From Minisyncoccota bacterium (lineage in GTDB: Bacteria > Patescibacteriota > Minisyncoccia > Phycocordibacterales > CAIJYI01), in NCBI GenBank assembly GCA_023229825.1, contig JALNYN010000002.1, forward strand, positions 17,789-81,788: DNA of 64,000 nt. Direction: 5' to 3'. Made by a program: the position numbers and the translations under genes. Every line of letters starts with the position of its first letter. Positions within the stretch are counted from its first letter, which is position 1. The notes under the pieces were generated by a model. It ran no database searches. It had not been told where the DNA came from and saw only the letters and a list, made by a program, of their open reading frames with translations. Positions 6,301 to 25,480 of the stretch are shown in pieces.

Positions 6301-8105
6301 TTATTCAAATCCACAATACGCACCCCCGCATCATTTCCACCAGAAACAACTTCCGTCGGAAACGTCCACGAAGTATCCTGAACAAACTGACTTCCGTTAT
6401 TTATATATGTCCCATCATCTCCCGTAATGTCAGTTAAACCGTCTCCATTAACATCCACAAGGCGCACACCACGATCGATTGATGAAAATCCGTTTGTGTT
6501 CACAAAATATACGGGAGGCGTCCAGTTGTTCGTGGCGGACCAGCCGCTTGCGCTTCCCAAATAGACAGCTTTATATGAAGCTCCTTGCCATCTCGATACT
6601 ATTTCATCAACATATCCATCGCCGTTCAGGTCGACAAAACGTAGTCCTGAATCATAAGGTTGCATAAATAATTCCGGTGAATCATATCCCGTTGTAGTCG
6701 CCCATGTCAATCCGGTATTCTCATGTTCGTAATAGACGGGATACAGACCTCCCCAGCTCCAGTTGAGATCAGGAAGGCTGTCTCCATTGAAATCAAGTAC
6801 TCTTCCACCGCCGTCTCCTCCTGTTGGTCCGGTAAAATAATGACCACCGGGCAATCGCCATTTATTCGGATCGGTATTTTCGGTCCAACCTTCCGTACTA
6901 GTGGAATATCCGAACTCGACGGCGGGAAGCGTCGTTGTACCGAGACTGCTGTCCCAGCCCGATTCTTCGGCGGAAACAAGAAGCGAGCGCAGTCCGCTGT
7001 TGCCTGCGTCATATGACAATACGTATCTATGTGTAACTTCTCCGTTCGTTTTGATACGAATTTCTTTTATTTGCTTTTTTGTGGCGACAGAAAAGCCTGA
7101 AACTGAAGAAGTTGCTACATCATTGCGATCTTCCCGTAAAAATTCAACAAGAAAAATACCGGAAAGGCTCGGATTATTGGTATATGAAATGGAAGAAGGA
7201 TAGATCTGTCCTGCGTCTTTATAATATGAATAATCTACCGAGTTGCCGTTGGTATCGCGAACTTGTTCGAGCATCCATTTATATATTTGCGAACCATCAG
7301 ACGGATTATCTTGTCTTGTTGAAGTGGAATAGCCGAGCGAGTATGTATTGCCGGACTTTGTTGTAATAAGCCACGCGTTATTCGTCAAAAGATATGAATT
7401 AAAATTTCCATTTTCAACTTTTGCGCGGTAGGTACTCGTTGATGTTTGTACCAGTTCACCATCCAAGCTGGAAGTAAAATAATTTTGACCGAACATTTTA
7501 TCCGTACCGGTCTTATTCATGCGTTCTATGTAAGGAATATTATGGGACCATCCGTATCCAAAGATCGAATTTTCTTTACTTTGGCTATTGTACCGCAGTG
7601 CGAGGCCTGGTTCCATTCCGTTTCTTCCGGGAGGAACTTTGATCGGGTATTCGTAAACGAGAGCACCGGTGAGCTCATCGGTTTTTATATTTTTTCCATT
7701 TACAACATTCTCAAGCGGTCTTGGACCGCCTTCATCCCCAGTAAGTGTCGACATCGATTCCGACTCTGTGGGGGTTTCTTCCTGTGACAAAGGCGTATCT
7801 ACTGCAGGCTCTATTGAGTCTTCAGAAGGAGAAACCACTTCTTCGGAAGTTTCAAGCGCCGGACCCTCGACAATCGGGGTTATTTCACTACTTCCCGGCA
7901 AAGCATCACCGGAACCCAAAGAGTCAATTGCTTCTTCTAAATTGAGCGACGCAACCGGCTCTGCGGGCGTAATTGCTTCCGAAGAAGTATTGGTTATCTC
8001 CGGAGCACTTATCGATTCTTCCGCAAAAACTTGGGACAGCGGAAAACTTAGGGTGATATTAATAATAGTTACGACGCTTACAAAAACTTTTTTTATACGG
8101 AACAT
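366..8105 (-). CDS. Giant secreted RHS/YD-repeat polymorphic toxin (TcB/TcC-like fusion): signal peptide, acidic linker, SpvB/TcdB N-terminal domain, FG-GAP beta-propeller repeats, YD repeats with inserted beta-sandwich domains, RHS core, variable Gly/Ala-rich C-terminal toxin domain
   Basis: Signal peptide MFRIKKVFVSVVTIINITLSFPLSQVFA. SpvB-type motif: YEYPIKVPPGRNGMEPGLALRYNSQSKENSIFGYGWSHNIPYIER. Six VDxNGDGxxD (FG-GAP) repeats. Many YD repeats (YTYDPLGRVTEI, FTYDKLGRRTT, YTYDHSGNRVKL). RHS core RYIHTDHLGGTNVVTDQNGNLVEAVDYYPYGT...RYYEGARGRFISQDPV. About 250 aa follow the core with glycine-zipper-like stretches (AAGVVGAGLYFDGLAVAGAI, GGLGNVAVSLANG). An internal duplicated domain pair (two WYL-containing ~150-aa segments) lies inside the repeat shell. 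Confidence 0.9.
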   Translation of the reverse strand: MFRIKKVFVSVVTIINITLSFPLSQVFAEESISAPEITNTSSEAITPAEPVASLNLEEAIDSLGSGDALPGSSEITPIVEGPALETSEEVVSPSEDSIEPAVDTPLSQEETPTESESMSTLTGDEGGPRPLENVVNGKNIKTDELTGALVYEYPIKVPPGRNGMEPGLALRYNSQSKENSIFGYGWSHNIPYIERMNKTGTDKMFGQNYFTSSLDGELVQTSTSTYRAKVENGNFNSYLLTNNAWLITTKSGNTYSLGYSTSTRQDNPSDGSQIYKWMLEQVRDTNGNSVDYSYYKDAGQIYPSSISYTNNPSLSGIFLVEFLREDRNDVATSSVSGFSVATKKQIKEIRIKTNGEVTHRYVLSYDAGNSGLRSLLVSAEESGWDSSLGTTTLPAVEFGYSTSTEGWTENTDPNKWRLPGGHYFTGPTGGDGGGRVLDFNGDSLPDLNWSWGGLYPVYYEHENTGLTWATTTGYDSPELFMQPYDSGLRFVDLNGDGYVDEIVSRWQGASYKAVYLGSASGWSATNNWTPPVYFVNTNGFSSIDRGVRLVDVNGDGLTDITGDDGTYINNGSQFVQDTSWTFPTEVVSGGNDAGVRIVDLNNDGLADVLVSRDYIGGAYLPKHIGYLNIGHGWQETPSFVPPTIFLDGIGWDTGYRFADVNGDGFTDFVGSADGRDVYINTGSSWVEASSTFPTDVMEYQGGNIFKDLGVNVEDVNGDGLPDVIRNDYQNHYVWIKNGEKADLLNRITGEQGAVTTVEYANSAELADDDSQPNPNLQYNFTVVKGIATDAGFGGTVSTTTYLYSDGVYYHSDPLDKKFAGFAKITKTDEEGNVTKTYYHQGNTSDSTNGEYNDHISKINKPYRVEKYDDANNLYSLTVNKWDKYSITASSTFVKLVQSTEEDFDGNGTHKDKAEAYSHNDSTGNLSQKVLWGEVSGSNDGSFTDTGTDKATYAYSYAASSTNSVISLPSRQLVTDQSDNTVKDTKWYYDGLSFGYASAGNSTKEEKLISGSAYASTTKVYDGTYGLVTQQADPRGNATNYSYDTYDLFVATSTNSLGQTQNFLYDYSSGKVATTTDENGLVFAVEYDGIDRVVAEKQPDQTNPRTLVTKSAYTYTDTPLEVAVQKTNYLNPSLTNTVYVYKDGLGRTIQIRSQSEGSNTYAVRDVSFNDRGLIEKESLPYFASSTARTSATAETNLYATYTYDPLGRVTEILNAVGSTTNAYDDWKVTTTDARGKQKILTKDAYGNLVKVEEKNSGDTYTTNYEYNLLGNLTKITDALSNIRNFTYDKLGRRTTAEDLHASGDGTYGTWTYAYDDANNQTQSVDPKSQTVNYTFDELNRPSTEDYMGQSGTETTYTYDNCTNGKTRLCTASSTATLISYEYTPIGQTKIATSTISGTPYATAYDYDRQGNQTFITHPDGSQIKYTYNAANLIEKVEEKENGGSFSNVVSNFDYSPTGQPTVINYTNGVVTTNTYDEDHLYRLNNKNTSNGTIQNISYSYDENANITQIADASANTGLAKTINYTYDDLNRLLTASTTMASSTPFSQTFTYNAIGNISSSTLAGVYAYDGTNYANPHAVTSITANGSDGSVSASTPALDSTTTSISNGWSGSTTKTWMHTVTGTNPIIILTADIWQDVAGTGSISSATWNGGAFTKASSTRMMGMSSEIWYLFATTTGAKTMSVNITGDTDAIKLSASSFTNAAATSPDAIASATGTNGNPSTTLSVPNVNDIVVSTLSRFSTANATTSKTSLFKDFTGSTLAAASYGIATTTGNYTDIYTGSASQDWSMLTASFKPATTSTETIAFEATSTDSSQGVSSVTFSHTTGSGNNRMLVVGTSIYEPGTPGNRVVSGVTYNGASLTKVRADDYDSISGCSELWYLPDPASGSHNVVITLTGSVTNIDSYASTFTGVAQTGQPYSNAGANTDWVMDHSVSTSTVSGALVIDALNGNIGSFSIAAGQTALMNLSGGTGIGSYKLATSSGTYTMKETTASYDCAAHSLATFAPATTTTSGTSTTTLSYDANGNLTSDGTLAYSWDYKNRLIQSTSATSTSTYTYDHSGNRVKLTEDGTTTYFPNKYFNQIGTTGTITKHIFAGDLLVSTIESKNTQNQSTTTVSSIYSDSINGWDNWSWGTTLDPSNSSPVRIGTYSLKATHSDSWTGLYLHSSGVSTATSTHFSFSVRVPDADAGIYIDSYGPDGWLAQITLADYIPGGSLSANTWYDVDIPLADLSAASTTLTGFAGMRASAGTVYWDDIRLISSNGEEATATSTVRYIHTDHLGGTNVVTDQNGNLVEAVDYYPYGTMRVDDKVGSYAEKRKYTGTENDSLSGLNYMQARYYEGARGRFISQDPVFWEIGLTRDGRSVLTNPQAQNSYSYANGNPITNKDPNGRNPFIIAAGAAYVTSVTWNRGSDIYQNYQDIVSGRNPDAPILQARGEYPGIRYAKDATTAALLAAGVVGAGLYFDGLAVAGAITTQGSKVLTAATGGLGNVAVSLANGNAKNQTTGQINSTALFGDFLGGFIGTRIGQQIPNPAGRAPVSIGASLGSARSVTEQLRAQLGQLTQVLTSMMATLSTKTEKK

Positions 8106-8814: not shown

Positions 8815-9918
8815 TTATGTCGTGAGAGGCATCACCAAGTACATAAATGACTGATCCGATACCCCGCGTATCACCAGAGGCCTTCCCTCGCCTGAGAAAC
8901 GGAAAGTGATGCTGTCTTGCTTAAGTGATTGAAAACAATCGATAAGATATTTCTGATTAAAACCGCACGAGATATTTTTTCCAGACAAAGAAGCGTCTAC
9001 AACGGTCATATTCTCGCCGGCTGTGGAATTTTTTGATTCGGTGATAAATTTCTTTCCGGAAACATCGACGGAAACATCGACCCGATTGAATTTGTCGGAA
9101 AACAGATTGGTTACCTTGAGTGCGTTCATGATATCCTGCTTTAGAACAGTCGCTTCCGTCGCATAATCTTTAGGGATTATTTGCTGATAATCGGGAAAAA
9201 TACCGTCAACGATCCGAGAGGTCACGTAAATATCTTTATCGGCAAGAGAAAAAGATATCTGATTCTTGCTCACATTGATATTCACACTTCCGGTTACTCC
9301 ATCAAATACGCGAAGTATTTCCACGATATTTTTTTGAGGTATCAATACGTGTTTGAATGAGGTTTTTTCTTTAAGGAACACTTTCTTTTCCGCCAGACGG
9401 AAAGAATCGGTCGCGGCAAAAATGATATTTTCCCCCTCGGAATAGATGCAAACGCTCGCTATCTCCGGCTTCATATCGGAAATGGATGCGCTATACCAAA
9501 CGCTTTTCACGCCGTCCACAAACTTATCCACCGGCATAGCAAAGGCATCGGTACCGGAAACGACGGGAAGCGTCGGAAAATCCTCGTGCGGAAGGCATTT
9601 AAGCACGGATCGCCCATTGGAAGACTTTAATACCATATTCTCAGAAGATGTTTCGAGCGAAACTTTTTGGTCATAGATCGAGGATAGAACGCCGGAAAGA
9701 AGATTACCCTGAATGACCAGCGTACCCTCCTCGGAAACCTGTGCGGGAATCTCCATTTCAATACCGACATCCAGATTGGTGGCGCGAAGAAGAAGTTTAT
9801 TGTTTTTTGCCGAGAAGAGTATTCCCCCAAGTACCGGAAGAGACAGATTTTTTCCGACCATCCTTTCGGCTAGTCCGACCGCATTTTTAAGTACGTCTTT
9901 TGAGCATTCTAGTTTCAT
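8815..9918 (-). CDS. dnaN: DNA polymerase III beta subunit (sliding clamp)
   Basis: 367 aa, MKLECSKDVLKNAVGLAERMVGKNLSLPVLGGILF... is a typical DnaN N-terminus with a three-domain length; sits directly downstream of dnaA. Confidence 0.9.
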   Translation of the reverse strand: MKLECSKDVLKNAVGLAERMVGKNLSLPVLGGILFSAKNNKLLLRATNLDVGIEMEIPAQVSEEGTLVIQGNLLSGVLSSIYDQKVSLETSSENMVLKSSNGRSVLKCLPHEDFPTLPVVSGTDAFAMPVDKFVDGVKSVWYSASISDMKPEIASVCIYSEGENIIFAATDSFRLAEKKVFLKEKTSFKHVLIPQKNIVEILRVFDGVTGSVNINVSKNQISFSLADKDIYVTSRIVDGIFPDYQQIIPKDYATEATVLKQDIMNALKVTNLFSDKFNRVDVSVDVSGKKFITESKNSTAGENMTVVDASLSGKNISCGFNQKYLIDCFQSLKQDSITFRFSGEGRPLVIRGVSDQSFMYLVMPLTT

Positions 9919-13002: not shown

Positions 13003-13491
13003 TTATGGCGCGAGTTTTGAGGGAAATGGTATTCCGTCCGGACAAAAACTTAAATGATAATCCGTTCCGGAAATATCATAGTCTGTGTCGATCGGTACGG
13101 TAACCGCCACGAATAATCGGCAGGCCTCATGTCTTCCAACATCAAGAACATCCAATAAACCCTGTTCTGCTTGTTTCCTTGTGTTTTCAAGGTTTCCTCC
13201 AAGCAGCGATACAATAAAACTTTGACAGTACTCATCGACTTCGGGGCATTTTTGATTGGAATAGAATATGATCTGATAATCTTTCTCTTTTACTATGATC
13301 GCGTCATATTCTTTACTCAGGATTTGATCCTGGGGCAGATTAAATAAAAAGTTTTTGACGGAAACTTTTCCATGGTTCAGCGCATTGGGTTTCCCGATAT
13401 CCTTTGCTGAAACAAGAATTCTTCCCGTACAAGCCGACAGTGAAATTGCCACAAAAATGGCAAGTATCAGGTGTATAACATATTTCTTCAT
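13003..13491 (-). CDS. Small secreted protein, paralog of the C-terminal part of the 16722..17339 product
   Basis: Signal peptide/lipobox-like MKKYVIHLILAIFVAISLSAC. C-terminus ACRLFVAVTVPIDTDYDISGTDYHLSFCPDGIPFPSKL aligns with ACKLYVALTVPFTVSEKAAGTDYHLSFCPNGIPLPKNL of the 16722 ORF. Confidence 0.6.
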   Translation of the reverse strand: MKKYVIHLILAIFVAISLSACTGRILVSAKDIGKPNALNHGKVSVKNFLFNLPQDQILSKEYDAIIVKEKDYQIIFYSNQKCPEVDEYCQSFIVSLLGGNLENTRKQAEQGLLDVLDVGRHEACRLFVAVTVPIDTDYDISGTDYHLSFCPDGIPFPSKLAP

Positions 13492-14314: not shown

Positions 14315-15061
14315 TTGTTATTCTTGCCATTTTCGCATACAATTAGCACTATGCAAACAATATTTCACAACGTATTTTACCTTCCCATGTACAATTTCCT
14401 TGTTTTTTTGGTGGATATTTTACCCGGAGGTAATATTGGACTTGCGGTAATTATTCTCACGATCATCATTAAATTGGCCCTTTTTCCGCTTTCTCAAAAA
14501 TCCATTACCACACAGGCTAAAATGCGCAAGATCGAGCCGGAAATGAAAAAAATAAAGGAAAAACATAAGGATCAAAAAGAACAGGCTCAAAAAATCATGG
14601 AATTATATAAAGAACATGATCTCAATCCTTTTTCCGGTTGCTTTCTTATGCTGCTGCAGCTGCCCGTCATATTCGCGCTTTATTACGTTTTTCTTCAAGG
14701 GTTTAAATTTGATACCGCCTCACTGTATTCTTTCGTTACATTACCCGAAACGATAAATTCTCAATTCTTGGGGATCGATCTTTTTGGAAAAAGCGTTATT
14801 CTTGCTCTCATTGCCGGAGCCTCGCAGTATTATCAGCTTCGTTACGCGATGCCTGCCGTTACTCCGGTCGAGAAGGGTAAGAATCTCACTTTTCAGGAAG
14901 AATTCACGAGAAATATGACGCTTCAAATGAAGTATATTTTTCCCGTCATGGTATTTTTTATCGCCTATACGATATCATCAGCCATCGCGCTCTATTGGAT
15001 CGTCAGCAATCTCTTTGCTATCGCACAGGAATTGTACGTAAGAAAACAAGCTGCTAAATAA
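14315..15061 (+). CDS. yidC: Membrane protein insertase YidC/Oxa1 (short, Gram-positive/CPR type)
   Basis: IILTIIIKLALFPLSQKSITTQAKMRKIEPEMKKIKEKHKDQKEQAQKIMELYKEHDLNPFSGCFLMLLQLPVIFALY is the conserved YidC core; multiple TMs. The true start may be the internal Met at 14348. Terminator at 15069-15093 (atcgacc-acag-ggtcgat + T7). Confidence 0.9.
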   Translation: MLFLPFSHTISTMQTIFHNVFYLPMYNFLVFLVDILPGGNIGLAVIILTIIIKLALFPLSQKSITTQAKMRKIEPEMKKIKEKHKDQKEQAQKIMELYKEHDLNPFSGCFLMLLQLPVIFALYYVFLQGFKFDTASLYSFVTLPETINSQFLGIDLFGKSVILALIAGASQYYQLRYAMPAVTPVEKGKNLTFQEEFTRNMTLQMKYIFPVMVFFIAYTISSAIALYWIVSNLFAIAQELYVRKQAAK

Positions 15062-15098
15062 GAAAAAAATCGACCACAGGGTCGATTTTTTTGAATTT

Positions 15099-15782
15099 CT
15101 ATCTCTGTATCGCTTTACAATCATCTAAAGCTGATCCCGTGAACACCAATGCCGCCTGACAGGTAACAATTGAGTCATAACAAGACGATACCGCTTGGGT
15201 TTGTATGTGAACGAAACAATATTTTGTGACGGTCGGTGCCGCAAAATCTCTCGCCTCACAGTTACTGCCTCCATAGCTCGCAGCCGCTTGGCATTGATCA
15301 GGCGTGTCAAAACACATATACGCCGAAAGGTTTCTGTTGTCGATGGTGTGTTTGCAGTATTTTGTCGTGTTGGTGGGTTGTTGCTGTTGTATTGTTTGTG
15401 ACGGAGCTAACTTTACCAAATTCAACCCTGTTCTCATAAGATCCGGATTGATGGTAACGATGATGACGGTTGATATCAGAAGAATCAATAGTCCGAATAT
15501 TGCCTCCCCCATCTTCTTTTTTCCCTCGGCTTTTGCGGAAGGGACGGCCGCAGTGACGTACCCGAGCGCTCCAATGATGATCATGATCACCGCCGCGATG
15601 ATGGCAAGACCTACTCCGGCGACAAAAACACCTTTCATGTATTCCACAAGCGTGGGGGTAGCGGATGTTGTCGGTATTGGGGCAAGAAGGGTGTATCCCG
15701 GATTTTGCGCAAAAGCGAAAAGCGGAGAAAAGAAATAGGCGCCGGGTATAAAATAGAAAATTGTTTTTTTTGCGTAATTCAT
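15099..15782 (-). CDS. VirB2/TrbC-like pilin-family protein, paralog 1: shared N-terminal module plus Cys-rich C-terminal domain
   Basis: Signal peptide, then LLAPIPTTSATPTLVEYMKGVFVAGVGLAIIAAVIMIIIGALGYVTAAVPSAKAEGKKKMGEAIFGLLILLISTVIIVTINPDLMRTGLNLVKLAP. That is two hydrophobic helices separated by a short basic loop (VirB2/TrbC topology). C-terminal 90 aa has 10 Cys. Confidence 0.6.
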   Translation of the reverse strand: MNYAKKTIFYFIPGAYFFSPLFAFAQNPGYTLLAPIPTTSATPTLVEYMKGVFVAGVGLAIIAAVIMIIIGALGYVTAAVPSAKAEGKKKMGEAIFGLLILLISTVIIVTINPDLMRTGLNLVKLAPSQTIQQQQPTNTTKYCKHTIDNRNLSAYMCFDTPDQCQAAASYGGSNCEARDFAAPTVTKYCFVHIQTQAVSSCYDSIVTCQAALVFTGSALDDCKAIQR

Positions 15783-15814
15783 GATCGAGGATAAATATGG
15801 TAAGTATTTGTTTG

Positions 15815-16720
15815 TTATTTAACTAAAACATCCCAATGATCGCTTTCCATGGCATAAATTGCACCGCTCGGGGATTGATATTGCAGCGCTCCATCGCTTC
15901 TTCTTCCAATATTGGTATAGTTATCCATAATGTAATTTGAAACGGAACTTGTTGTCCTAAGGTCAACTTTATATCCGTTAGCATGACTGTAGGTGCCATC
16001 GGCATGACCGGGTTCGGAACCTGCCGTAACGACGATATCGGCCCCGGATTGCTGTTGAAGATTTAACACCTCGTGAAGAGTTGATTCGTTGACGCCCGCC
16101 AATATGGTTTGCGGCGGTTGTGCATTTACTGTGATATGGCCCGTATCGGTAAGCAGAGATCGGTTCGCTTGTTCATTGCCGGTTGATTGTTGTGTTCCCG
16201 TTTGTGTTTGCGGGGGCGGGTTTGTCGTGCAAGTGTATGACCGCTGCGGACCTTCACACTCCGCCAGAGTTGAGTAACAGGCATTATTAAGAACGCCGGT
16301 ACGGCAATACTGGGTCGCGGTTTGCTGCTGTTGCTGTGTTACCGATGTCGGAGCTAACTTTACCAAATTCAACCCTGTTCTCATAAGATCCGGATTGATG
16401 GTAACGATAATAACCGTCGATATCAGAAGAATCAATAGTCCGAATATTGCCTCCCCCATTTTCTTTTTACCTTCAGCTTTTGCGGAAGGGACGGCTGCTG
16501 TGACGTACCCGAGCGCTCCAACGATGATCATGATCACCGCCGCGATGATGGCAAGACCTACTCCGGCGACAAAAACACCTTTCAAATACTCTACGGCCGA
16601 TGGAGCCGCTGATGTTGTCGGTATTGGGGCAAGAAGTTTATATCCCCGTGCAAAAGCGAAAGTTGGGAAAAAAATACTTAAACAGGTAAAAAAGGTAAAG
16701 TAACTTTTTTTTCTTTTCAT
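15815..16720 (-). CDS. VirB2/TrbC-like pilin-family protein, paralog 2, with a different C-terminal domain
   Basis: Same N-terminal module (…LLAPIPTTSAAPSAVEYLKGVFVAGVGLAIIAAVIMIIVGALGYVTAAVPSAKAEGKKKMGEAIFGLLILLISTVIIVTINPDLMRTGLNLVKLAP). About 290 nt (16350-16640) is ~95% identical at the DNA level to 15404-15700. C-terminal domain ...GHADGTYSHANGYKVDLRTT...ESDHWDVLVK is unrelated to paralogs 1 and 3. Start set at ATG 16718-16720 (MKRKKSYF), 1 nt after the stop of the upstream gene; the track ORF extends to 16801. Confidence 0.6.
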   Translation of the reverse strand: MKRKKSYFTFFTCLSIFFPTFAFARGYKLLAPIPTTSAAPSAVEYLKGVFVAGVGLAIIAAVIMIIVGALGYVTAAVPSAKAEGKKKMGEAIFGLLILLISTVIIVTINPDLMRTGLNLVKLAPTSVTQQQQQTATQYCRTGVLNNACYSTLAECEGPQRSYTCTTNPPPQTQTGTQQSTGNEQANRSLLTDTGHITVNAQPPQTILAGVNESTLHEVLNLQQQSGADIVVTAGSEPGHADGTYSHANGYKVDLRTTSSVSNYIMDNYTNIGRRSDGALQYQSPSGAIYAMESDHWDVLVK

Positions 16721-16721
16721 A

Positions 16722-17339
16722 CTAATCATTGAGATTTTTTGGCAAAGGTATTCCGTTGGGGCAGAAACTGAGATGATAGTCTGTACCGGCAGCTTTTTCA
16801 CTTACGGTAAAAGGAACGGTAAGCGCGACGTAGAGTTTGCATGCATCCTCTTTTGTGATCTCCAGTTTATCCAGAAAAGCCTGCTCAGCTTCTTCTCTTG
16901 TGATATAAAGATCGCCGCCCTCCAAGCTGATGTAAAAACTCTGATACTTTGCGTAGAACATGAAACTGTAGTTTACTCCTTCTTTAACTACGGCGTCATT
17001 ATCTTTATCGATGATCCTTGTGTAAGGGCTGAGATAGAAATTTTTCATTGAGAGCGTTTCCCCTTCCATGGTGGTCACTTTTATATTTTCAGGCGATTCC
17101 GCTTTTTTGGGCGCTGTCGACGTGCTCGTTTCATCCGGTTTTGCGGCGGCTGGCTTAGGAGTGGATCCGTTATTTTTTTGACTTACCGGAAAAGTGGGGT
17201 AATTAGTGTCGGATGGCTGTACTTCCGGAGCGTTTTTTTGCATTTTCCAATAAATGAATCCGCCGATGATGAGGATAACCGCCAAAATGTTGAGGGTGAT
17301 AATGATCTTTTTATTCATAGAGATCGATATTAAAAACAC
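16722..17339 (-). CDS. Secreted protein (N-terminal TM/signal anchor), paralog of 13003..13491
   Basis: 205 aa; MNKKIIITLNILAVILIIGGFIYW...; C-terminal homology to the 13003 product (GTDYHLSFCPNGIPLPKNL). Translationally coupled to pilin paralog 2. Confidence 0.6.
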   Translation of the reverse strand: MFLISISMNKKIIITLNILAVILIIGGFIYWKMQKNAPEVQPSDTNYPTFPVSQKNNGSTPKPAAAKPDETSTSTAPKKAESPENIKVTTMEGETLSMKNFYLSPYTRIIDKDNDAVVKEGVNYSFMFYAKYQSFYISLEGGDLYITREEAEQAFLDKLEITKEDACKLYVALTVPFTVSEKAAGTDYHLSFCPNGIPLPKNLND

Positions 17340-17342
17340 TTA

Positions 17343-18287
17343 TTAACGCGTAAAACCGCACTTCGAGTTCGCTCCCCATTGACCCCAATGGTTGCCGCCA
17401 TTCGATATTTCTACCGCCTTGGCAATATTGATATCCGGGTCAGTCGCAGCTGAAACACACTTTTGATATTGAGATTGTTCTATTACTGTGCAATCGTAAT
17501 TCGGCGCGGAAAAAGGGTGTAAAGGGTCGGCTTTATGATACTTATAGAGACATATCAATCCTCCAAGATCGTGCATGGTAAGATTGACCTGAAAAAGACC
17601 GAATGAGAATGAATTTCCGTCTCGGCATCGGTCTACCCTGCTCGCCAGTGACGCGTTCCCTCCACTTTCCGCATTGCAGATGGATGATGCCTTTTCTGCG
17701 TTCGCTCCAAAATATTTTGTAAGCGCTTGAACACTGCAAGGCCCCGGAGTGGTGATAGGTTTGCATTGTCCGCTGCCTGCTCCACCGCCCCCGCCTCCTC
17801 CGCCTCCGCCACCACCAGAACCGCCGCCTCCTGTTCCGTTGCCATATGGGTTGTATACGATGGGCAGCGGTGGCGATGGTGGGAGTTTTGCGAGATCCAT
17901 TCCTGCGGTTAACAGATCAGGATTAAGGGTGAAGAGTAACAGATAGGAAAAAATTGCCACAAAAAGTCCGCCGATCGCTTCAAATATCTTTTTCTTTCCT
18001 TCAGATTTTGCTGATGGAACCGCCGCCATGACATACTGAATACCTCCTATAACTATCATTATGACAGCAAAAATGACTGACATGCCGACAAACAATACCA
18101 CCAGTCCTTTTATGTAGGTCGGGAAAGAAAGAGATCCCGCGTTTGAAATAGTCGGGATCTCTGCGAGTAATTCATACCCCCTTTGCGCGAATGTGCTTTT
18201 GGCGGATAATACAAAAGAATAAAGCAACACAAGGAGAGCCGGGAGGAAGATATAAACGATATTTTTTTTATTTTTCTGTGACATCAT
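17343..18287 (-). CDS. VirB2/TrbC-like pilin-family protein, paralog 3, fused via a poly-Gly linker to a lysozyme-like/transglycosylase-like C-terminal domain
   Basis: N-terminal module LLAEIPTISNAGSLSFPTYIKGLVVLFVGMSVIFAVIMIVIGGIQYVMAAVPSAKSEGKKKIFEAIGGLFVAIFSYLLLFTLNPDLL. Linker GGGGSGGGGGGGGGGGAGSG. C-terminal CNAESGGNASLASRVDRCRDGNSFSFGLFQVN resembles the ES...G(L/F)(M/F)Q catalytic signature of lytic transglycosylase/Rpf-like lysozyme folds; this is inference. Confidence 0.55.
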   Translation of the reverse strand: MMSQKNKKNIVYIFLPALLVLLYSFVLSAKSTFAQRGYELLAEIPTISNAGSLSFPTYIKGLVVLFVGMSVIFAVIMIVIGGIQYVMAAVPSAKSEGKKKIFEAIGGLFVAIFSYLLLFTLNPDLLTAGMDLAKLPPSPPLPIVYNPYGNGTGGGGSGGGGGGGGGGGGAGSGQCKPITTPGPCSVQALTKYFGANAEKASSICNAESGGNASLASRVDRCRDGNSFSFGLFQVNLTMHDLGGLICLYKYHKADPLHPFSAPNYDCTVIEQSQYQKCVSAATDPDINIAKAVEISNGGNHWGQWGANSKCGFTR

Positions 18288-18489: not shown

Positions 18490-19782
18490 TTACGCCTCCG
18501 CCTTATGTACCTCAAATGCCCAAAGAGATGAGTCTTTTTTGTTGGTAAAATAAATGAAATCCTGAAGCGGTGATATCACAAGCGAGGTCATATCCATAAG
18601 TTCCACCGTGAAACTTGAAGGAACAAGAATAACTACCGACTTCCCCGTGTTTGCATCTACTTGCCAAAGGTTATCTGAAAAAGAAACAGTCCCCTGATAC
18701 CAGGCATCAGGATAGGCGGTTCCGGGAAGATTTTGCGGAGCGGCGCAGTAGATGGTAAGGCTGTCGCTTTTCCATGCGCATTTTTCCGGCAAGGTCTGGA
18801 GGATCAGATTAACGGTAGTATTATTTGAAATATTATGGATACCAAGCGTTAATCCGCCTTTTGTGCTTTCTGAATAAAGAATGCGTTGTCCATCCGTGCT
18901 TGGGAGCGTCGTGAGCCCTTTTTTGTCGCCGAGGATCTTTTTAAGGACCCCGCTTTTTATATCGAATGAGTAAAGAAAACCGGGAACGTTTTGCGATGCT
19001 TTGGTTTGAAGGAGTACGTTTTTTGAGTTAACGGCAACCGGGAGCCATTCGGAAAAAGGAGACTGAAAGACTTGAGATCCGCTATTCTTTTCAAAATTGA
19101 ATATCGATCCAAAAGAATTTCTGTTGCTGAATTCACCAGTTCGCGTCAGATAAAAAGCCGTTTTTTCATCTGCCGATACTTTTAGGTCAGCAATATCCGG
19201 AGGAAGGAACCGTCCATTCGGAACAGATGCGCTGGTGGTAGCGTTATCAGATGATAAAGCGCCGGCTCTCGGGATATCAAGAACGAATGTGGAGATCGTC
19301 TCCCCTTTGCTTTTGAGATAACGCATTACGACCGATCTTCCGCTATTGGCAAACTGCGCTTCATAGATCCTCGGCATTATGGAATGAGAGATCCTGTTCG
19401 TTTGCATATCTTCGAGCCTGGTTTCAAAAACATTACCGGTCTCTTTTTCGACATAATTTACATACTCCTTTCCTGATTTCTGGGTTGCATATGATCCGGC
19501 TACGGCATTTTTGGTGACCTGACGTAAGATCGGAAGATCTTTATTGCCGACATACGCGGGAATATCAGAATTGTTATTTATCACATTTCCCGAAGGAGAG
19601 GTCCCATTGGGGTTAACTTTGGTACTGTCTGAGTTTCCAAAAGGAAAAAATCCATTAGGTTCCTGACCAGTCTCTTTTGGGGTGTTATTTCCGCCCCTCG
19701 TTAAAATGAATGACGCAAGGAAAAAACCGATGGTGATTATTGCGAATATTCCTACGATTATATAAAGCTGTTTTTTTGACAT
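18490..19782 (-). CDS. Bitopic membrane protein (N-terminal TM, ~400-aa beta-rich extracytoplasmic domain); possible T4SS-like structural component
   Basis: 430 aa; MSKKQLYIIVGIFAIITIGFFLASFILT; embedded in the virB4/virB6/pilin cluster. No recognisable family motif. Confidence 0.4.
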   Translation of the reverse strand: MSKKQLYIIVGIFAIITIGFFLASFILTRGGNNTPKETGQEPNGFFPFGNSDSTKVNPNGTSPSGNVINNNSDIPAYVGNKDLPILRQVTKNAVAGSYATQKSGKEYVNYVEKETGNVFETRLEDMQTNRISHSIMPRIYEAQFANSGRSVVMRYLKSKGETISTFVLDIPRAGALSSDNATTSASVPNGRFLPPDIADLKVSADEKTAFYLTRTGEFSNRNSFGSIFNFEKNSGSQVFQSPFSEWLPVAVNSKNVLLQTKASQNVPGFLYSFDIKSGVLKKILGDKKGLTTLPSTDGQRILYSESTKGGLTLGIHNISNNTTVNLILQTLPEKCAWKSDSLTIYCAAPQNLPGTAYPDAWYQGTVSFSDNLWQVDANTGKSVVILVPSSFTVELMDMTSLVISPLQDFIYFTNKKDSSLWAFEVHKAEA

Positions 19783-19789
19783 ATCCTTT

Positions 19790-20839
19790 TTAGTTATCGT
19801 ATGACATCATAACGTTTTTTGATGCGGTCTGAAGATCATAGCCCAGGTTGTTTATCGCGAGATTCAGCTGAAATCTTCCGCTCCCCTGTTCCGGCTTCCT
19901 GAAAGTGAACTCGGTTTTGTTGTCCGGATCGGTCTCGAGTTTTTTACCGTCAATTTTCCATGAAAAAGAGGCGGTGTTGTTGTTTAATCCCGGAAGTGCA
20001 AAATAGAAAGGCGCGGCGCGAACCGTGAGCTCTTTATCGGTGAACCGAAAAGCTTCACCCAGACTATTTTCAAATCTCATACCTTCGAGCGGTTTGTTCT
20101 GATAAAACACGATCTTCGGTTCGCTGACATAGATCGGGACCTTTTTACTGATCGATAATCCGGTATCCAGTGTGGAAACGGTGACCTCTATTTGGTCTGT
20201 ATTGTAGGTATAGCCGGTTTTGTAAATAAAAATATTTTTTCCATATCCGGAATCATTCGGATTTCCAAAATAGCCGGCTTTCCATTTATAGACGAGATTG
20301 GAGGAATTGTAGTAGCCATCTTGACCGACAAATGATGGAAATGGTACGACGCGCACAGAACCTTGCGACGACGGCAGAGCTTTTCCTTTGTAAAACGGCG
20401 GAACGTACGTATCTGCTTCCCAGAGCACATCAAGATCGGTCGGCGTTATAGTGACCTCTTTGGTTATATTGCCGAATGACGGCGCGTCTGCTGATATTTT
20501 TATGACTGATTGGTTGCCGACATTACCTGTGGTAAAAGTAAAGCTTTTTTTACCCAACCCTGTCAGTTTCATTTGTCCGTCGACATACCAAGTAATGGTA
20601 GTTTTATCGAGATTTACCTGAAAGGACGAAGCATTTACGGTTGTGCTCTGTAATGCTCCCGGAAACTTCGGGGTGTAAGAAAGAGTTATGATATTGCTGC
20701 TTTTTCCCATTATGGAGTCCAGTTGTCCGTATGCGTATCCAAACACGCTAAAAAATACAAGAAACACAAGTGGAAAATATATTTTCTTCATACCATTATT
20801 ATATAGGAAAAAACATCCGCAAAAAAGCAGGTTATCCAC
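19790..20839 (-). CDS. Secreted hypothetical protein (beta-rich)
   Basis: 349 aa; probable true start MKKIYFPLVFLVFFSVFGYAYG near 20791 followed by a signal peptide. Confidence 0.45.
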   Translation of the reverse strand: MDNLLFCGCFFLYNNGMKKIYFPLVFLVFFSVFGYAYGQLDSIMGKSSNIITLSYTPKFPGALQSTTVNASSFQVNLDKTTITWYVDGQMKLTGLGKKSFTFTTGNVGNQSVIKISADAPSFGNITKEVTITPTDLDVLWEADTYVPPFYKGKALPSSQGSVRVVPFPSFVGQDGYYNSSNLVYKWKAGYFGNPNDSGYGKNIFIYKTGYTYNTDQIEVTVSTLDTGLSISKKVPIYVSEPKIVFYQNKPLEGMRFENSLGEAFRFTDKELTVRAAPFYFALPGLNNNTASFSWKIDGKKLETDPDNKTEFTFRKPEQGSGRFQLNLAINNLGYDLQTASKNVMMSYDN

Positions 20840-20912: not shown

Positions 20913-21275
20913 TTATTTATTCATCGCGGATCTTATCAGACCGGAAATAAGTCGAATAGCGATACGTATGGAATTGTTTATATCATTAAAGTTTTTTTCA
21001 TCCAGATACCCGAGATCTTTTGCTACAAGAAGCTGGCTTTCGACCTCAAGAAGCGATCCTTTTGCGATAGCATAAAACTGAGATTTATCTTTTCCTGAAT
21101 TTCTTCCAAAACCCTCAGCAATATTCGACACTATTGAAACAGAAGCTCTGCGAATTTGATTCGTCAGACCAAACTTTTCATCCGAAGGAAACATTTTTGT
21201 AGTTTTATAAACTAGAATCACTAGTTTTTGTGATTCTTTCCATGCTTCTAAATCTGTAAAATTATGAATAGTCAA
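20913..21275 (-). CDS. Four-helix-bundle protein (23S rRNA intervening-sequence protein family)
   Basis: 120 aa; RRASVSIVSNIAEGFGRNSGKDKSQFYAIAKGSLLEVESQLLVAKDLGYL is the family signature (SNIAEGFGR). Confidence 0.8.
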   Translation of the reverse strand: MTIHNFTDLEAWKESQKLVILVYKTTKMFPSDEKFGLTNQIRRASVSIVSNIAEGFGRNSGKDKSQFYAIAKGSLLEVESQLLVAKDLGYLDEKNFNDINNSIRIAIRLISGLIRSAMNK

Positions 21276-21318: not shown

Positions 21319-23175
21319 TTATTGATTCGTCGACTGTTCGGCGTATTCGTTTCTTGATTTTTTGATCGCTAATACTTGCGATGGGTCGGAGGTGATGATC
21401 TGATCCTCTGTGTAAGACGAAATAACCTTAATGGCAACATGTTTTGACCCGGCAAAGAAGATACCCTCTCCTACTCCCGATTCAAGTAAAAGATATTTTT
21501 CCTCATCCGTAAGATTGAAGGTTTTTTGAACGATCTCAACGGAAGACGGGGATTGTTTCATAAGGAATTGCAGCGAGGAGTTCGTTATGATCGGCAAACC
21601 GTACGGACTTCGTAAAAAGTCTTCGACGTCCTGTGTGATCGTGGCGATCCCCAGAAAGTATTTTCTTCCTCTTTTTGCCAAACTAAAGAGAAAAGAAGCC
21701 GTATCTTCGGATTTCATCATCCACCATGCCTCGTCGATAACCATGAGCCGTTTGCGGAGCTCTTTGCGTATGGCACCCCAAATGTAGTGAGTAATGATAT
21801 ACATGGCCACCGGTTTCAGCTCATCTTCCATGTCTCGGACTGAAAAAACGATGAATTTCTTATTGATGTCGATATTCGTCGGCTTGTTGATGAAATTCGA
21901 CCATGTTCCCTTCGTGTATTTTGTGAGGCGCTGAACCAGTGATTCCGCACCATCCATTCCTGTGAGAACCAGCTCAAAGTCGCCCAGGATCGGCGGATCG
22001 ACCTCTGCAAAGTTGGATTCAGCGGTAATATCTTTCATTGCATAGGTTTCCGTAATGGCGCGATCGATGATCGCATCTTCTTCCGGAGTAAGGCCGCTGA
22101 ACATGATACGAAAGAGGCCCACTAGGTTGATGATATGAGACCGAAGAACATCGGACGCTGATTCATCTTCTCTTGGAACGGGAAGATCAAAAGGATTGAT
22201 GTGGTGCCCTGACGTAAGCGAAATATTGAAATATCTGCCGCCGGTAGCCTCCGCCATATATTCATATTCCCTTTCCGGATCGATAACAATGACTTCCGTA
22301 TCGAGCATGAGCGTTCGAAGTATTTCAAGCTTTGTTGTGTAGGATTTACCGGATCCGGACTTCGCAAAGATGATCGAGTTATAGTTTTCGAGAGAAAAAC
22401 GGTCGAATAGAACAAGACTGGAATTGTGTCGATTGACGCCATAGAGAATCCCCTTATCGGAGGTGAGGTCGAAAGAAACGAACGGAAACATGCTCGATAG
22501 AGGCGAAGAATTGAGCTTGGAATGGATCTGGAGGTCGTCTGTTCCGGTCGGTATAACACTATGAAAGCCGATCTCTTGCTGAAAGAGCGCCGGTTTTACA
22601 TAGACGAGCTTTGATTCCAAAAGAGATTTTATCTGAGATTCGAATTTATCCAATTCAGCGTCATCCGATCCATAAATGGTGACATACAGGCCGACATCGT
22701 AGAGTTTTTCCGTCGCCTGCTGCAGTTTGTCGCGCAATTCCTCAAGATCGCGAAAAGCAGTTTCAAGGATCGGATCGCGAACGAAACCTTTTTCTTCCCT
22801 CTCACTGATCTGGCTTTGTACTTCCGTCACCTTTTTCTGGAATTGTTTGAGTACGGTTCCGGTATCGATCGGATGCACGAAGATGGAAATATCGAAAACG
22901 CGGTCAAGATTGATGATCGGAGAGAACCAGCTGTCGGAAAGATAACGAGGATAAGAGATAACAAAGAATGTCCTTGCGATCTTTTCGCCGAGATTCAGCT
23001 GCTTCGGAGTGATCTTGAGCGCGGCCGGAGCGAGCACATCGCGCAGTTCGAGAACGCCGGATTCATATATTTCCTGCGGCAGGATCGGTACGATCTCTTG
23101 TTTATTCGATTTGTTTCCAAAAAATCCCATATAAAAAAGTAAAAAGTTAAAAGGTGAAAGTTTTTTCGTTGTCAT
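21319..23175 (-). CDS. virB4: VirB4/TrbE/CagE-family type IV secretion ATPase (short Gram-positive-like form)
   Basis: Walker A FAKSGSGKSYTT; Walker B LMVIDEAWWMM, where DEAW is the VirB4 signature; ~600 aa. The track ORF starts at a GTG (23199) inside the family-C repeat. First in-frame ATG (MTTKKLSPF) is at 23175 and a later Met (MGFFGNK) at 23130. Confidence 0.85.
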   Translation of the reverse strand: MTTKKLSPFNFLLFYMGFFGNKSNKQEIVPILPQEIYESGVLELRDVLAPAALKITPKQLNLGEKIARTFFVISYPRYLSDSWFSPIINLDRVFDISIFVHPIDTGTVLKQFQKKVTEVQSQISEREEKGFVRDPILETAFRDLEELRDKLQQATEKLYDVGLYVTIYGSDDAELDKFESQIKSLLESKLVYVKPALFQQEIGFHSVIPTGTDDLQIHSKLNSSPLSSMFPFVSFDLTSDKGILYGVNRHNSSLVLFDRFSLENYNSIIFAKSGSGKSYTTKLEILRTLMLDTEVIVIDPEREYEYMAEATGGRYFNISLTSGHHINPFDLPVPREDESASDVLRSHIINLVGLFRIMFSGLTPEEDAIIDRAITETYAMKDITAESNFAEVDPPILGDFELVLTGMDGAESLVQRLTKYTKGTWSNFINKPTNIDINKKFIVFSVRDMEDELKPVAMYIITHYIWGAIRKELRKRLMVIDEAWWMMKSEDTASFLFSLAKRGRKYFLGIATITQDVEDFLRSPYGLPIITNSSLQFLMKQSPSSVEIVQKTFNLTDEEKYLLLESGVGEGIFFAGSKHVAIKVISSYTEDQIITSDPSQVLAIKKSRNEYAEQSTNQ

Positions 23176-23248
23176 CCCGGGCAACGACCCGGGATCCACG
23201 TTGTTACTGTATTGGACGACGTGGATTCCGGATCAAGTCCGGAATGAC
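23167..23248. repeat. Family-C double-hairpin element, complete copy
   Basis: cgttgtcatcccgggcaacgacccgggatccacgttgt (stem atcccggg/cccgggat) + spacer + acgtggattccggatcaagtccggaatgacg (stem attccgg/ccggaat). Overlaps the annotated 5' end of virB4. Confidence 0.85.
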
Positions 23249-23266: not shown

Positions 23267-23917
23267 TTAATGTACATTTTCGAGAGGGATCGGTTTATCG
23301 ACCTCGCCCGGATTAAATATTTTATAAAAAAGTTCGACGATCTCTTCCGTTCCGAGCTGTGCTACGCGTATTCCGAATCGCGATAATCCTTGTTCGATCA
23401 CCGAAACCCTCTGCTCTATTTGTGTCTTGCTTTCTTCGAAGTTCTCCAGCCATTCTTTTGTTTTTGCCGTTGCGGGAGTTCCTCCTCCGGAAGTGAAGCT
23501 CCATTTGCTTTTAACGCTGGAACTTATGTTCGATGCATACGGAACGACCACGAAGAAGCTTTTAGACATAATATTTGTGGAGTCCGTAAAATTCTTAATA
23601 AAGTCGATGTATTCGCGTGTCTGTATCCGCATAAGCTCGTTGATCTGGTCTCTTTCCTTTTCCTCCAAAAACGCGATATACGGGCGAATATCCAAACGGC
23701 GCGATTGAATATAGAATTGGATGGAAAATTCGAGCGAATTGAGAAAATTCTGGAATTGACCGATGATGGCCTCCTGTTCGTCTTGCGATTTAAGCGCTAT
23801 GTTCAAAGAAGAAGTCATAAGAACAGCGCGAAAAGAATTGTCTTTCATGATGACGATCCCGTCGCGTATCTCTTTGATCGGTATGAAGTCTTGAGCTGGT
23901 TTAGATTTTTGAGCCAT
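23267..23917 (-). CDS. Hypothetical cytoplasmic protein in the T4SS-like cluster
   Basis: 216 aa, no TM, no recognised motif. Confidence 0.4.
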   Translation of the reverse strand: MAQKSKPAQDFIPIKEIRDGIVIMKDNSFRAVLMTSSLNIALKSQDEQEAIIGQFQNFLNSLEFSIQFYIQSRRLDIRPYIAFLEEKERDQINELMRIQTREYIDFIKNFTDSTNIMSKSFFVVVPYASNISSSVKSKWSFTSGGGTPATAKTKEWLENFEESKTQIEQRVSVIEQGLSRFGIRVAQLGTEEIVELFYKIFNPGEVDKPIPLENVH

Positions 23918-23962: not shown

Positions 23963-24340
23963 TTAAATGGTTAAATTGTTGTTTGTAAATTGGATCAGCG
24001 TGTTGATTTCCTTTGAAAGAGAGTTGAGACATTTGTATATTTTATCGTATTCCTCTTTTTTTATTAGTTTTCTGATTTTTGCTTTCTCGTTCCAATCAAG
24101 AGATTCTTTTACGGAACCGCGGCTATAATAGTAAAATTTTATCTTGTCTTTTTTTCCGTATCTTCCAAATCCTTCGGCGATATTAGCTGAAATAGAATCA
24201 ACCGCTCGTACAAACTGTTTTCCAACGGTATCTTTTTCAAAATAACCCCAAGAACAAACAATACCCCATATACAATTGCTTAAAATAAACGATTTTTTGT
24301 ATGCAGAAATGTCATTCAGTGCAAGATATTTTTTATCCAT
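23963..24340 (-). CDS. Four-helix-bundle protein (23S rRNA IVS protein family), second copy
   Basis: VDSISANIAEGFGRYGKKDKIKFYYYSRGSVKESLDWNEKA. The track start (24349) is a TTG; first ATG gives MDKKYLALN. Flanked by inverted ttaaatgg-unit repeats (23954-23981 and 24350-24379). Confidence 0.8.
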   Translation of the reverse strand: MDKKYLALNDISAYKKSFILSNCIWGIVCSWGYFEKDTVGKQFVRAVDSISANIAEGFGRYGKKDKIKFYYYSRGSVKESLDWNEKAKIRKLIKKEEYDKIYKCLNSLSKEINTLIQFTNNNLTI

Positions 24341-24382
24341 ATTTTTCAACCATTTAACAATTTAGCCATTTAACAATTTTTC

Positions 24383-24895
24383 CTACAAGTCCTTCAATAG
24401 CGGTGCGTGTCCTTTTTCTGATATTTGGGATCTTTTTCCGTATTGGTCTTTATCTTTGATGTCTAAACTCCACGCAAGATCTTTCAGATTGCTTTCCGAT
24501 AAAGGCGGAACATAGGCGCCGTTTACTCCCGAATCTTGCCCTTTCATGGATGAGGAGGAACTTTCCGGTTTTCTGGGTTCTTTTTTCCAGATATAAAGCC
24601 GGGGCGACGAAAAATATGTCAGAAATGCTTCAACCATAAACATGAACGGTTTGTTGTATGGCCGGTAAAAAGCAAGCGCCACCCCGAACGATATCGAGAG
24701 CACAATAAGAGGAAGAGCAAAATATATTTTTAAGTAAGTGTAGGCAAGGTATGAAACAGCCAGACTTCCCAAAATATAGAGAAACTGCTTCATTGTAATA
24801 AATCCGAAGACCTTGTCTTCCACTTCAAGAAATTGAGGTACGTGGTATTGCATAATATTTTCTATACTATAAATATACCACGAAAAACAATACAA
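24383..24895 (-). CDS. Small 2-TM membrane protein, possible VirB3/PrgI-like T4SS component
   Basis: 170 aa; two hydrophobic helices (FLYILGSLAVSYLAYTYLKIYFALPLIVLSISFGVALAFY). Placed between VirB6-like and VirB4 genes as VirB3 usually is. Inference only. Confidence 0.35.
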   Translation of the reverse strand: MYCFSWYIYSIENIMQYHVPQFLEVEDKVFGFITMKQFLYILGSLAVSYLAYTYLKIYFALPLIVLSISFGVALAFYRPYNKPFMFMVEAFLTYFSSPRLYIWKKEPRKPESSSSSMKGQDSGVNGAYVPPLSESNLKDLAWSLDIKDKDQYGKRSQISEKGHAPLLKDL

Positions 24896-25057: not shown

Positions 25058-25480
25058 TTATATTGCCTCCTTATATGGATCGACAGGTTTATTGATCTCG
25101 GCGGGCGCTTGTTCCGGTTTTATTTCAAGCTTTTTTTCTTCCGCTGAGTTTGCTTCCGCGGTCATTTTATGGATCTCCATCAAAGAATGACGGACGTTTT
25201 TGAAGATCTTTTCGTTTATTATGCCGGCGATCTCTTTGGCTGTCGGCGCCGGAATATTAAGTGTTTTTTCTACAATGGAAATGAATTTTTGCGGAGGGGT
25301 GGCTCCCAGCATAAGCATCCCGACTTCCGCCGAAAGATCGCCGACCTGGTCGATGTGAAAATGGTATTTTTCCTGTATTCCCTTAAGAACATCCACGGTA
25401 TCCACCGAAGTCATCGCGTCTTTGACATCGTCGGGAAGCTCCGCGAACATTTTATCGAGTTGAGATTTTGTGTAGGGCAT
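25058..25480 (-). CDS. Hypothetical soluble protein
   Basis: 140 aa, acidic, no motif recognised. Confidence 0.4.
   Translation of the reverse strand: MPYTKSQLDKMFAELPDDVKDAMTSVDTVDVLKGIQEKYHFHIDQVGDLSAEVGMLMLGATPPQKFISIVEKTLNIPAPTAKEIAGIINEKIFKNVRHSLMEIHKMTAEANSAEEKKLEIKPEQAPAEINKPVDPYKEAI

Follow-up and report, generated by a model that had tools for sequence, protein, structure and literature searches.

The stretch of DNA analysed here, referred to as the window, comprises 64,000 nucleotides (nt) from a Minisyncoccota bacterium (assembly GCA_023229825.1, contig JALNYN010000002.1, positions 17,789 to 81,788 of the forward strand). It carries a chromosomal type IV secretion system (T4SS) gene cluster near oriC on the minus strand, whose distal genes were designated p1, p2 and p3. 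These genes encode proteins of 227, 301 and 314 amino acids (aa), larger than plain hairpin pilins with their precursors of ~100-150 aa, in which a pilin-type module is followed by 100-190 aa past its hairpin. In minus-strand order the cluster consists of genes for an 833-aa polytopic protein, a 140-aa protein, a PrgI/VirB3-like protein, a 216-aa TraC-like protein and VirB4, followed by g349, g430, p3, g205, p2 and p1. VirB4 and PrgI are encoded on the same strand 3-9 kb upstream of the pilin-type genes, and this synteny is kept in two related loci, L084 and L085. An earlier annotation made without database searches (the sequence-only reading) had described p1, p2 and p3 as tandem paralogs; the arrangement is not strictly tandem because the non-pilin gene g205 separates p3 from p2. 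We favor, with a rough probability of 0.6, the interpretation that p2 and p3 are pilin-anchored VirB1 equivalents of the T4SS, one a predicted glycan cutter and the other a predicted peptide cutter.

Pilin-type module and tails of p1, p2 and p3

The module common to the three proteins consists of a Sec-type signal peptide, a hydrophobic helix, a basic loop and a second helix ending in NPDL. The loop, AAVPSAK(A/S)EGKKK, is invariant across p1, p2 and p3, and the signal peptides, delimited by hydropathy segments, have AxA-type ends. In the AlphaFold2 model of p3 the two hairpin helices span residues 55-87 and 91-121. A hidden Markov model (HMM) of the module retrieved only p1, p2 and p3 from the window, in agreement with the proposal that one N-terminal module is common to these three open reading frames (ORFs).

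Searches against known families place this module among T4SS pilins. The p3 protein scores 27.6 bits to PF18895 (T4SS_pilin), above the gathering cut-off of 26.6, while p1 (20.4 bits, E 5.5e-4) and p2 (17.9 bits) fall just below it; NCBIfam gave weak module matches to a pilin-like protein of a Mycoplasma integrative and conjugative element. A word-indexed homologue search with the hairpin only returned 3 proteins and was replaced by an exhaustive profile search, in which a profile built from the three modules was run against 1.84 billion representatives. This identified 25,798 matches at E<=1e-3 and 9,757 at E<=1e-10. Among the 149 best relatives, 142 matched PF18895 at E<=1e-3 and 10 also matched TrbC (PF04956), and two pilins of the Southlakia array are given in the supplement of PMC10633639 as matching the PF18895 and TrbC families on the same residues. 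Membership of the module in the T4SS_pilin/VirB2 family is sound by homology, and the VirB2/TrbC typing made earlier is borne out by the p3 score, by relatives that are nearly all PF18895 proteins rather than members of an unrelated family, and by the location in a T4SS cluster. The module may also act as a pilin, although this function is a step beyond family membership.

One could instead regard the module as a generic two-helix anchor for housekeeping growth or division hydrolases with no tie to the T4SS, given that p1 and p2 score below the Pfam cut-off and that short hydrophobic hairpins are easily over-assigned. This is very improbable, as the genes stay closely linked to VirB4 in several classes, nearly all proteins retrieved with the module profile are PF18895 proteins, and a separate LysM-M23 hydrolase is encoded elsewhere in the window.

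In p3, the hairpin is followed by a linker of ~45 disordered residues (predicted local distance difference test, pLDDT, below 50) with a Pro-rich start and then a poly-Gly run. Orthologues have linkers of very different lengths, as would fit a sequence prone to slippage. The poly-Gly part (17770-17832) is coded by an imperfect GC-rich short repeat. The C-terminal domain beyond it (143 aa) was modelled with pLDDT values of 81-97 and passes the Pfam SLT_3 family (PF18896) with 30.3 versus 27 bits, although just the final 28 of the 89 positions of the profile are aligned. In 17-20 homologues, residues E207-S208 and G230-L-F-Q233 of the p3 tail do not vary, nor do six or seven Cys. In an hhalign comparison the ESGG...GLFQ of p3 falls on the ESGG...GLMQ of Pfam-SLT-positive relatives, a weak alignment with a probability of 24%. 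The tail has a lysozyme-like fold and a catalytic-type Glu in the E-S plus GL(M/F)Q pattern, and the earlier suggestion of a lysozyme-like tail holds on the strength of the SLT_3 score, the invariant ES...GLFQ and the confident domain model. SLT_3 was detected at E<=1e-3 in 7 of the 149 best relatives compared to 16 with p3-like tails by phmmer, which indicates that the SLT_3 model under-detects the p3-type subfamily. A literature search for SLT_3 and PF18896 returned unrelated papers only.

The likeliest start of p2 is the ATG at 16720 (MKRKKSYF..., with an ...AFA cleavage motif), one base past the g205 stop; the GTG at 16801 is less likely. The tail of p2, which the sequence-only reading had left as unknown, is modelled with a LAS (Hedgehog/DD-peptidase) fold at a pLDDT of 92.4. 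Residues H239, H246, D253, E292, H295 and D297 are invariant in 9 homologues with the spacing H-x6-D...E-x2-H, and the homologues have an invariant H and the motifs SHANGYKxD and ExxHxD. The spacing H246-x6-D253...E292-x2-H295 is, we presume, that of the zinc ligands and catalytic Glu of VanX, which makes H246, D253 and H295 candidate metal ligands. Known LAS enzymes include VanX, VanY, MepA, the Streptomyces DD-carboxypeptidase, phage L-Ala-D-Glu endolysins and the Hedgehog N-domain; Pfam gave no relevant match for the p2 tail or its 8 homologues at E<=10, and the tail had no PDB sequence match. Judged by its sequence, it is a distinct LAS subfamily (SHANGYKVD...ESDHWD) that is invisible to Pfam. 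Many Actinomycetota (Nocardioides, Actinomadura, Streptomyces, Kitasatospora) and the fungus Desarmillaria also encode the p2-type domain by itself, as a small secreted protein. The structure check that had been proposed for the C-terminal domains was in this way carried out for p2 and p3, and with the p2 tail assigned to the LAS fold, two of the three paralogs carry putative wall hydrolases that are complementary.

The tail of p1 consists of two copies of a ~30-aa unit with four Cys, for which a word-indexed homologue search with the whole Cys-rich tail gave no match. One such unit is present in p2, between the hairpin and the LAS domain, and in other family members the unit precedes the hairpin; both positions are extracytoplasmic by predicted topology. 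The C-terminal domains are therefore divergent as had been claimed (Cys-rich, LAS and lysozyme-like) and in no case identical, except that p2 shares one p1-type unit.

The boundary between module and tail also bears on whether the tails persist on the mature proteins. C-terminal processing of TrbC/VirB2-type pilins is established, and these proteins lose C-terminal residues in maturation. Cleavage after export would here leave a mature short pilin and free hydrolases or Cys-rich peptides, which would fit the sharp conservation boundary after NPDL...KLAP, the low-complexity linkers that follow it and the window's having no tail-less pilin. However, neither a protease gene nor a conserved cleavage motif was identified, and orthologues differ in how long their linkers are and in what residues these contain. 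We consider such pro-proteins unlikely.

The p1/p2 tract and the tails of relatives

The modules of p1 and p2 share a homogenised tract of 79 codons, from YMKG to ...NLVKLA, in which 224 of 237 nt are identical at a constant offset of 947 nt (94.5%; 97% of aa and 86% of third codon positions). Third-position identity is 24-67% in all other module pairs, and random pairs of 237-nt windows have a mean identity of 25.6% with a maximum of 40%. Within 20 nt on both sides, identity falls to ~40-43%, and the 3' edge is sharp, right after the codons for ...KLAP. The block and its 3' edge noticed in the sequence-only reading are real, but the extent given there (~95% over ~290 nt) was generous, since identity over 15404-15700 is 269/297 (90.6%). 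Likewise, a recently homogenised module applies to p1 and p2 but not to p3, which has 54% aa and 58% nt identity to p1.

Four-fold sites are 81% identical between the p1 and p2 modules, compared to 33-45% in every gene compared between genomes (VirB4, YidC and the LAS domain), and the two modules are equally far (72% nt) from the orthologous modules of loci L082 and L083. The saturation of four-fold sites between genomes indicates that both tail types are old, and because they are old, the likeness of the two hairpins argues for gene conversion. On the simplest reading of these sequences, one hairpin converted the other, with breakpoints where the signal peptide meets the hairpin and where the hairpin meets the linker, and the old unrelated tails were kept. 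The resulting direct repeats, 947 bp apart, would also favor deletion to a single chimeric gene, and the one-gene states of relatives may have arisen in this way. An assembly artefact was considered for the p1/p2 repeat and rejected, as the copies differ at 13 of 237 positions and independent records exist. The Logan contig L001 holds the same p3, g205 and start of p2, and a protein identical to p1 has two NCBI accessions from Candidatus Paceibacterota bacterium on 2 contigs, annotated as 'hypothetical protein'; these records make an artefact unlikely. The exact DnaA protein of the window is recorded at NCBI under the same organism name.

The survey of other C-terminal cargos that had been suggested was run on the best 150 representatives by module profile, a sample biased towards query-like modules. 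Tails of at least 80 aa past the last module were present in 110 of the 150 and were mostly wall hydrolases. They comprised 35 p2-type LAS tails (E 1e-25 to 1e-46), 16 p3-type tails, 9-10 tails matching Pfam SLT and 1 YkuD, and a further cluster of 14 tails with an H...CxD...HxH-like pattern that is LAS-like by sequence inspection only. The LAS tails were invisible to Pfam. When tails of at least 60 aa were grouped, 42 clusters were obtained among 123 proteins.

Full-length pilin-LAS genes were found in GTDB genomes of Paceibacterota, Moraniibacteria, Saccharibacteria, Wolfebacteria and Liptonbacteria. In loci from Moraniibacteria, Saccharibacteria, Wolfebacteria and Paceibacterota whose contigs extend far enough, the gene lies 1-4 kb downstream of VirB4. 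Homologues of g349 and g430 (L005, L037, L062) flank the pilin-LAS gene in these and other loci of the candidate phyla radiation (CPR), in Saccharibacteria in the order VirB4 - g349 - pilin-LAS - g430, which suggests a conserved four-gene core. Relatives with 95% VirB4 identity keep the order VirB4 - g349 - g430 - pilin-SLT3 - g205 - pilin-X - yidC, and the occupant of the X slot beside yidC varies: a LAS protein in L084 and L002, two Cys units in L082 and one in L083, with the L085 copy leaving its contig after the first Cys unit. The window has the LAS and Cys types side by side.

The sequence-only reading had likened this layout to polymorphic toxin logic. In an effector system of that kind, the hairpin would be a delivery or anchoring handle, the tails interchangeable antibacterial effectors and g205 an immunity protein or inhibitor. 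Like Rhs and CdiA toxins, the family has a conserved N-terminal part, a variable C-terminal part, a sharp junction and an anchor that is a recombination substrate. Many tail families occur on one anchor, the last slot is LAS (L084, L002) or Cys-only (L082, L083, L085) although the VirB4 proteins of L084 and L085 are 95% identical to that of the window, and g205 is conserved beside the hydrolase genes, with a g205-like gene also after the Cys+LAS gene of L075. However, the tails are mainly peptidoglycan hydrolases or Cys-rich units and not nucleases or deaminases, and the enzymes are VirB1-type activities expected of any T4SS. No orphan tail cassettes were seen, and of the loci fetched, L075 was the single one beyond the close relatives in which a g205 homologue was detected. 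We examined whether the LAS cassette had been transferred laterally in recent time, since p2 and L084 share 82% identity in the LAS domain but 56-61% in the modules, and rejected this on the saturation of four-fold sites: these are 40% identical between p2 and the L084 X copy, compared to 36-42% for VirB4. This indicates by sequence an old cassette of vertical descent next to a module that simply evolves faster, and since saturation of synonymous sites equals that of VirB4, there is no sign that cassettes were exchanged recently. We regard polymorphic effectors as quite improbable; the many tails and the changing last slot support the toxin analogy only in part.

Single polypeptides of some family members (P0012, P0013, P0022, P0030, P0034 and P0136) hold many pilin modules, and with a local HMM and domain cut-off 18 of the 150 proteins have 2-9 modules. 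P0030 (1775 aa) has up to 17 matched stretches by hmmsearch, and P0012 ends in an SLT domain. These multi-module proteins may be 'polypilins' or fused gene calls.

Candidate roles at the type IV secretion system

The signal peptide, taken with the positive-inside rule, predicts that the hairpin has its two ends outside. The hairpin would be exported via Sec with its N-terminus out, the basic loop in the cytoplasm and the C-terminus out, and flexible linkers of 30-70 residues, rich in Gln, Pro or Gly, would hold the tails at the outer face of the membrane. There, the lysozyme/SLT-like tail of p3 would cut glycan, and the LAS zinc peptidase of p2 would cut peptide stems or cross-links. The hairpin would retain both hydrolases at the T4SS, either in the adjacent membrane or as minor pilus subunits, so that the wall would be opened only locally. 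The p1 protein, with the smallest tail, would be the best candidate for the structural (major) subunit, and the hairpin would be a common, recombining anchor.

A glycan and peptide cutting pair is known from the monoderm VirB1-type proteins PrgK (pCF10) and TraG (pIP501), which combine SLT and CHAP domains and are likewise encoded in T4SS loci and membrane-tethered (PMC12102498). It is this pairing that ranks pilin-anchored VirB1 equivalents first. Unlike in PrgK and TraG, the predicted activities are here on two proteins, the peptidase has a LAS fold and not CHAP/NlpC, and the anchor is a pilin-type hairpin. According to PMC12102498, most Patescibacteria with VirB2 homologues have no detectable VirB1, and other hydrolases may substitute; pilin-hydrolase fusions would fill this gap. 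In Southlakia epibionticum ML1, SEML1_0006 (lysozyme-like) and SEML1_0007 (Hedgehog/DD-peptidase, residues 951-1105) adjoin virB4 and are essential (PMC10633639). They represent the same two fold classes as p3 and p2, a likeness by fold class, but are described there as large multidomain proteins (643 and 1113 aa) for which no PF18895 match is listed.

Arrays of VirB2-like pilins in Patescibacteria have been described by Wang et al. 2023 (PMC10633639) and Quinonero-Coronel et al. 2025 (PMC12102498), and the modules studied here belong to the same family, PF18895. The Southlakia array pilins SEML1_0017-0019 are reported as short (381-417 nt, ~126-138 aa), whereas all three proteins here have C-terminal extensions of 100-190 aa, and the at most 54% aa identity reported within published arrays contrasts with the 97% of the p1 and p2 hairpins. 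Term searches of PMC12102498 gave no passage on a pilin-hydrolase fusion, and no description of this layout was found in the searchable literature. Patescibacterial pilin arrays and T4SS-linked hydrolases are already known, and the fusion architecture is abundant in databases. As far as we searched, the fusion, its dominance in this family branch, the Pfam-invisible LAS subfamily and the conversion tract appear to be undescribed. The sequence-only reading was essentially right on structure but overstated novelty, because the T4SS-adjacent lysozyme and Hedgehog/DD-peptidase proteins are reported as essential in Southlakia (PMC10633639) and SLT_3 is already in Pfam.

Several points weigh against the interpretation as pilin-anchored VirB1 equivalents. 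We know of no characterised conjugative pilin with a C-terminal extension of 100-190 aa, and on steric grounds it is doubtful that p2 and p3 polymerise. The module HMM found no tail-less pilin in the window, which would leave the source of a pilus shaft unclear. Both p1 and p2 lie below the PF18895 gathering cut-off, the SLT_3 match of p3 is partial and its hhalign comparison weak, and the p2 metal ligands are proposed from residue spacing. No meaningful match came from Foldseek, nor from sequence searches of the PDB in which the p2 and p3 tails and the profiles A2 and A6 were the queries. The count of hydrolase tails comes from a sample enriched in query-like modules. Finally, topology, enzyme activity, association with the T4SS, incorporation into a pilus and the wall that would be cut, own or host, are predictions from sequence and models.

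A more far-reaching possibility is that p1 polymerises and that p2 and p3, along the pilus or at its tip, cut the host wall and open a path for uptake or delivery. The hairpin termini are predicted outside, and on their long disordered linkers the domains could reach outward. Southlakia cannot grow as an epibiont without its pilin arrays and T4SS, and the pilus as a conduit is discussed in the literature. The extracellular parts are 43-70% aa identical between relatives compared to 95% for VirB4, as expected for host-facing surfaces, and free-standing p2-type LAS proteins occur in Actinomycetota, a known host group of Saccharibacteria. Against this, no demonstrated pilus was found for any Patescibacterial T4SS in the searched literature, a bulky domain on pilin subunits is without precedent, and remodelling of the cell's own wall fits the same data, which do not identify the target wall. 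We hold such an armed pilus to be improbable, though less so than the other alternatives. An 'enzymatic drill' with which an ultrasmall epibiont would bore through the wall of its host bacterium, the T4SS pilus subunits bearing lysozyme-like and LAS enzymes on flexible tethers, is equally tentative; the hairpin would then serve as a scaffold that recombines and lets lineages exchange tools suited to particular walls.

The interpretation as anchored VirB1 equivalents has consequences for how this family is read. Patescibacteria (CPR) make up a large share of bacterial diversity, and the T4SS is essential for epibiotic growth in the sole species tested. Their T4SS is notable for having pilins in a monoderm-type system with VirB1 seemingly absent from most genomes, and the fusions give a concrete way to explain the 'missing VirB1'. 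Across a large branch of the 'pilin' family, the hairpin anchors predicted peptidoglycan hydrolases, several of which are missed by current Pfam models, and many of the proteins classed as pilins may in fact be enzymes on an anchor. The glycan and peptide cutters are candidates for opening the own or host wall at the contact site, and the p1/p2 tract points to the hairpin as a recombination substrate able to create, homogenise or delete paralogues.

Neighbouring genes and coordinates

The positions of the genes and of their parts are given in Table 1. The minus-strand operon ends at a terminator-like hairpin, and dnaA and dnaN (the latter at 8815-9918) lie a few kb beyond the cluster end. No coupling protein or relaxase was present among the larger window ORFs scanned, and the cluster is an oriC-proximal, relaxase-less, monoderm-type T4SS as known from Patescibacteria (PMC12102498).

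Table 1. Coordinates of the pilin-type genes, their domains and neighbouring features in the window
Feature	Position	Strand	Remarks
p1, pilin-module protein, 227 aa	15099-15782	-	ORF; module HMM E 3e-54; orthologue P0014/L082
p1 signal peptide	15708-15782	-	
p1 hairpin	15402-15707	-	
p1 Gln-rich linker and two 4-Cys mini-domains	15102-15401	-	Cys units ~15258-15359, ~15117-15224
p2, pilin-module protein, 301 aa	15815-16720	-	ORF extends to GTG 16801
p2 signal peptide	16649-16720	-	
p2 hairpin	16343-16648	-	
p2 Gln-rich linker, one 4-Cys unit and Pro/Gln/Thr linker	16178-16342	-	
p2 LAS-fold zinc-peptidase-like domain	15818-16177	-	H239, H246, D253, E292, H295, D297
p3, pilin-module protein, 314 aa	17343-18287	-	
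p3 signal peptide	18186-18287	-	
p3 hairpin	17877-18185	-	
p3 Pro/Gly-rich disordered linker	17775-17876	-	
p3 lysozyme/SLT-like domain	17346-17774	-	E207-S208, G230-L-F-Q233, conserved Cys
Homogenised tract, p1 copy, 79 codons	15405-15641	-	YMKG to ...NLVKLA
Homogenised tract, p2 copy	16352-16588	-	
g205, 205-aa membrane-anchored non-pilin protein	16722-17339	-	between p3 and p2
g430, secreted or anchored protein	18490-19782	-	
g349, secreted or anchored protein	19790-20839	-	
VirB4-type T4SS ATPase	21319-23199	-	PF19044 P-loop_TraG E 7.8e-26; 95% aa identity to L084, L085
TraC-like 216-aa protein	23267-23917	-	
PrgI/VirB3-like protein	24383-24895	-	
140-aa protein	25058-25480	-	
833-aa polytopic membrane protein, candidate VirB6	25640-28141	-	
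Bidirectional terminator-like hairpin, 13-bp stem	15063-15092		between convergent yidC and p1
yidC	14315-15061	+	convergent with p1

The g205 gene sits beside pilin-hydrolase genes in all close relatives, and it ends in a TAG codon that a single base separates from the p2 ATG downstream. Its domain of ~110 aa ends in GTDYHLSFCPxGIP. A lipoprotein paralogue is encoded in the window at 13003-13491 on the minus strand, a single ORF of L084 (9034-9993) holds two tandem copies of g205, and the g205-like gene that follows the Cys+LAS gene lies at 600-1085 of L075, a distant CPR contig. It is possible that g205 is a partner or inhibitor of the pilin hydrolases.

Two genes for '23S rRNA-intervening sequence proteins' (four-helix, bAvd-like), at 20913-21275 and 23963-24349 on the minus strand, flank VirB4 inside the T4SS cluster. 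Neither of these 23S_rRNA_IVP positions is occupied by a gene in the syntenic locus L084, and the two genes may be mobile or accessory insertions. About 20 kb away, a LysM-LysM-Peptidase_M23 wall hydrolase (39952-40968, plus strand) indicates that the cell has conventional peptidoglycan hydrolases besides p2 and p3. A UvrD-type helicase gene (33335-36373, minus strand) is split by an intein, with Intein_splicing and Hint domains between the helicase N- and C-terminal domains. Some 700 bp from dnaN, a 2579-aa protein (366-8105, minus strand) contains SpvB, FG-GAP and RHS-repeat domains, a content that suggests a giant polymorphic toxin or surface protein of the Rhs type.

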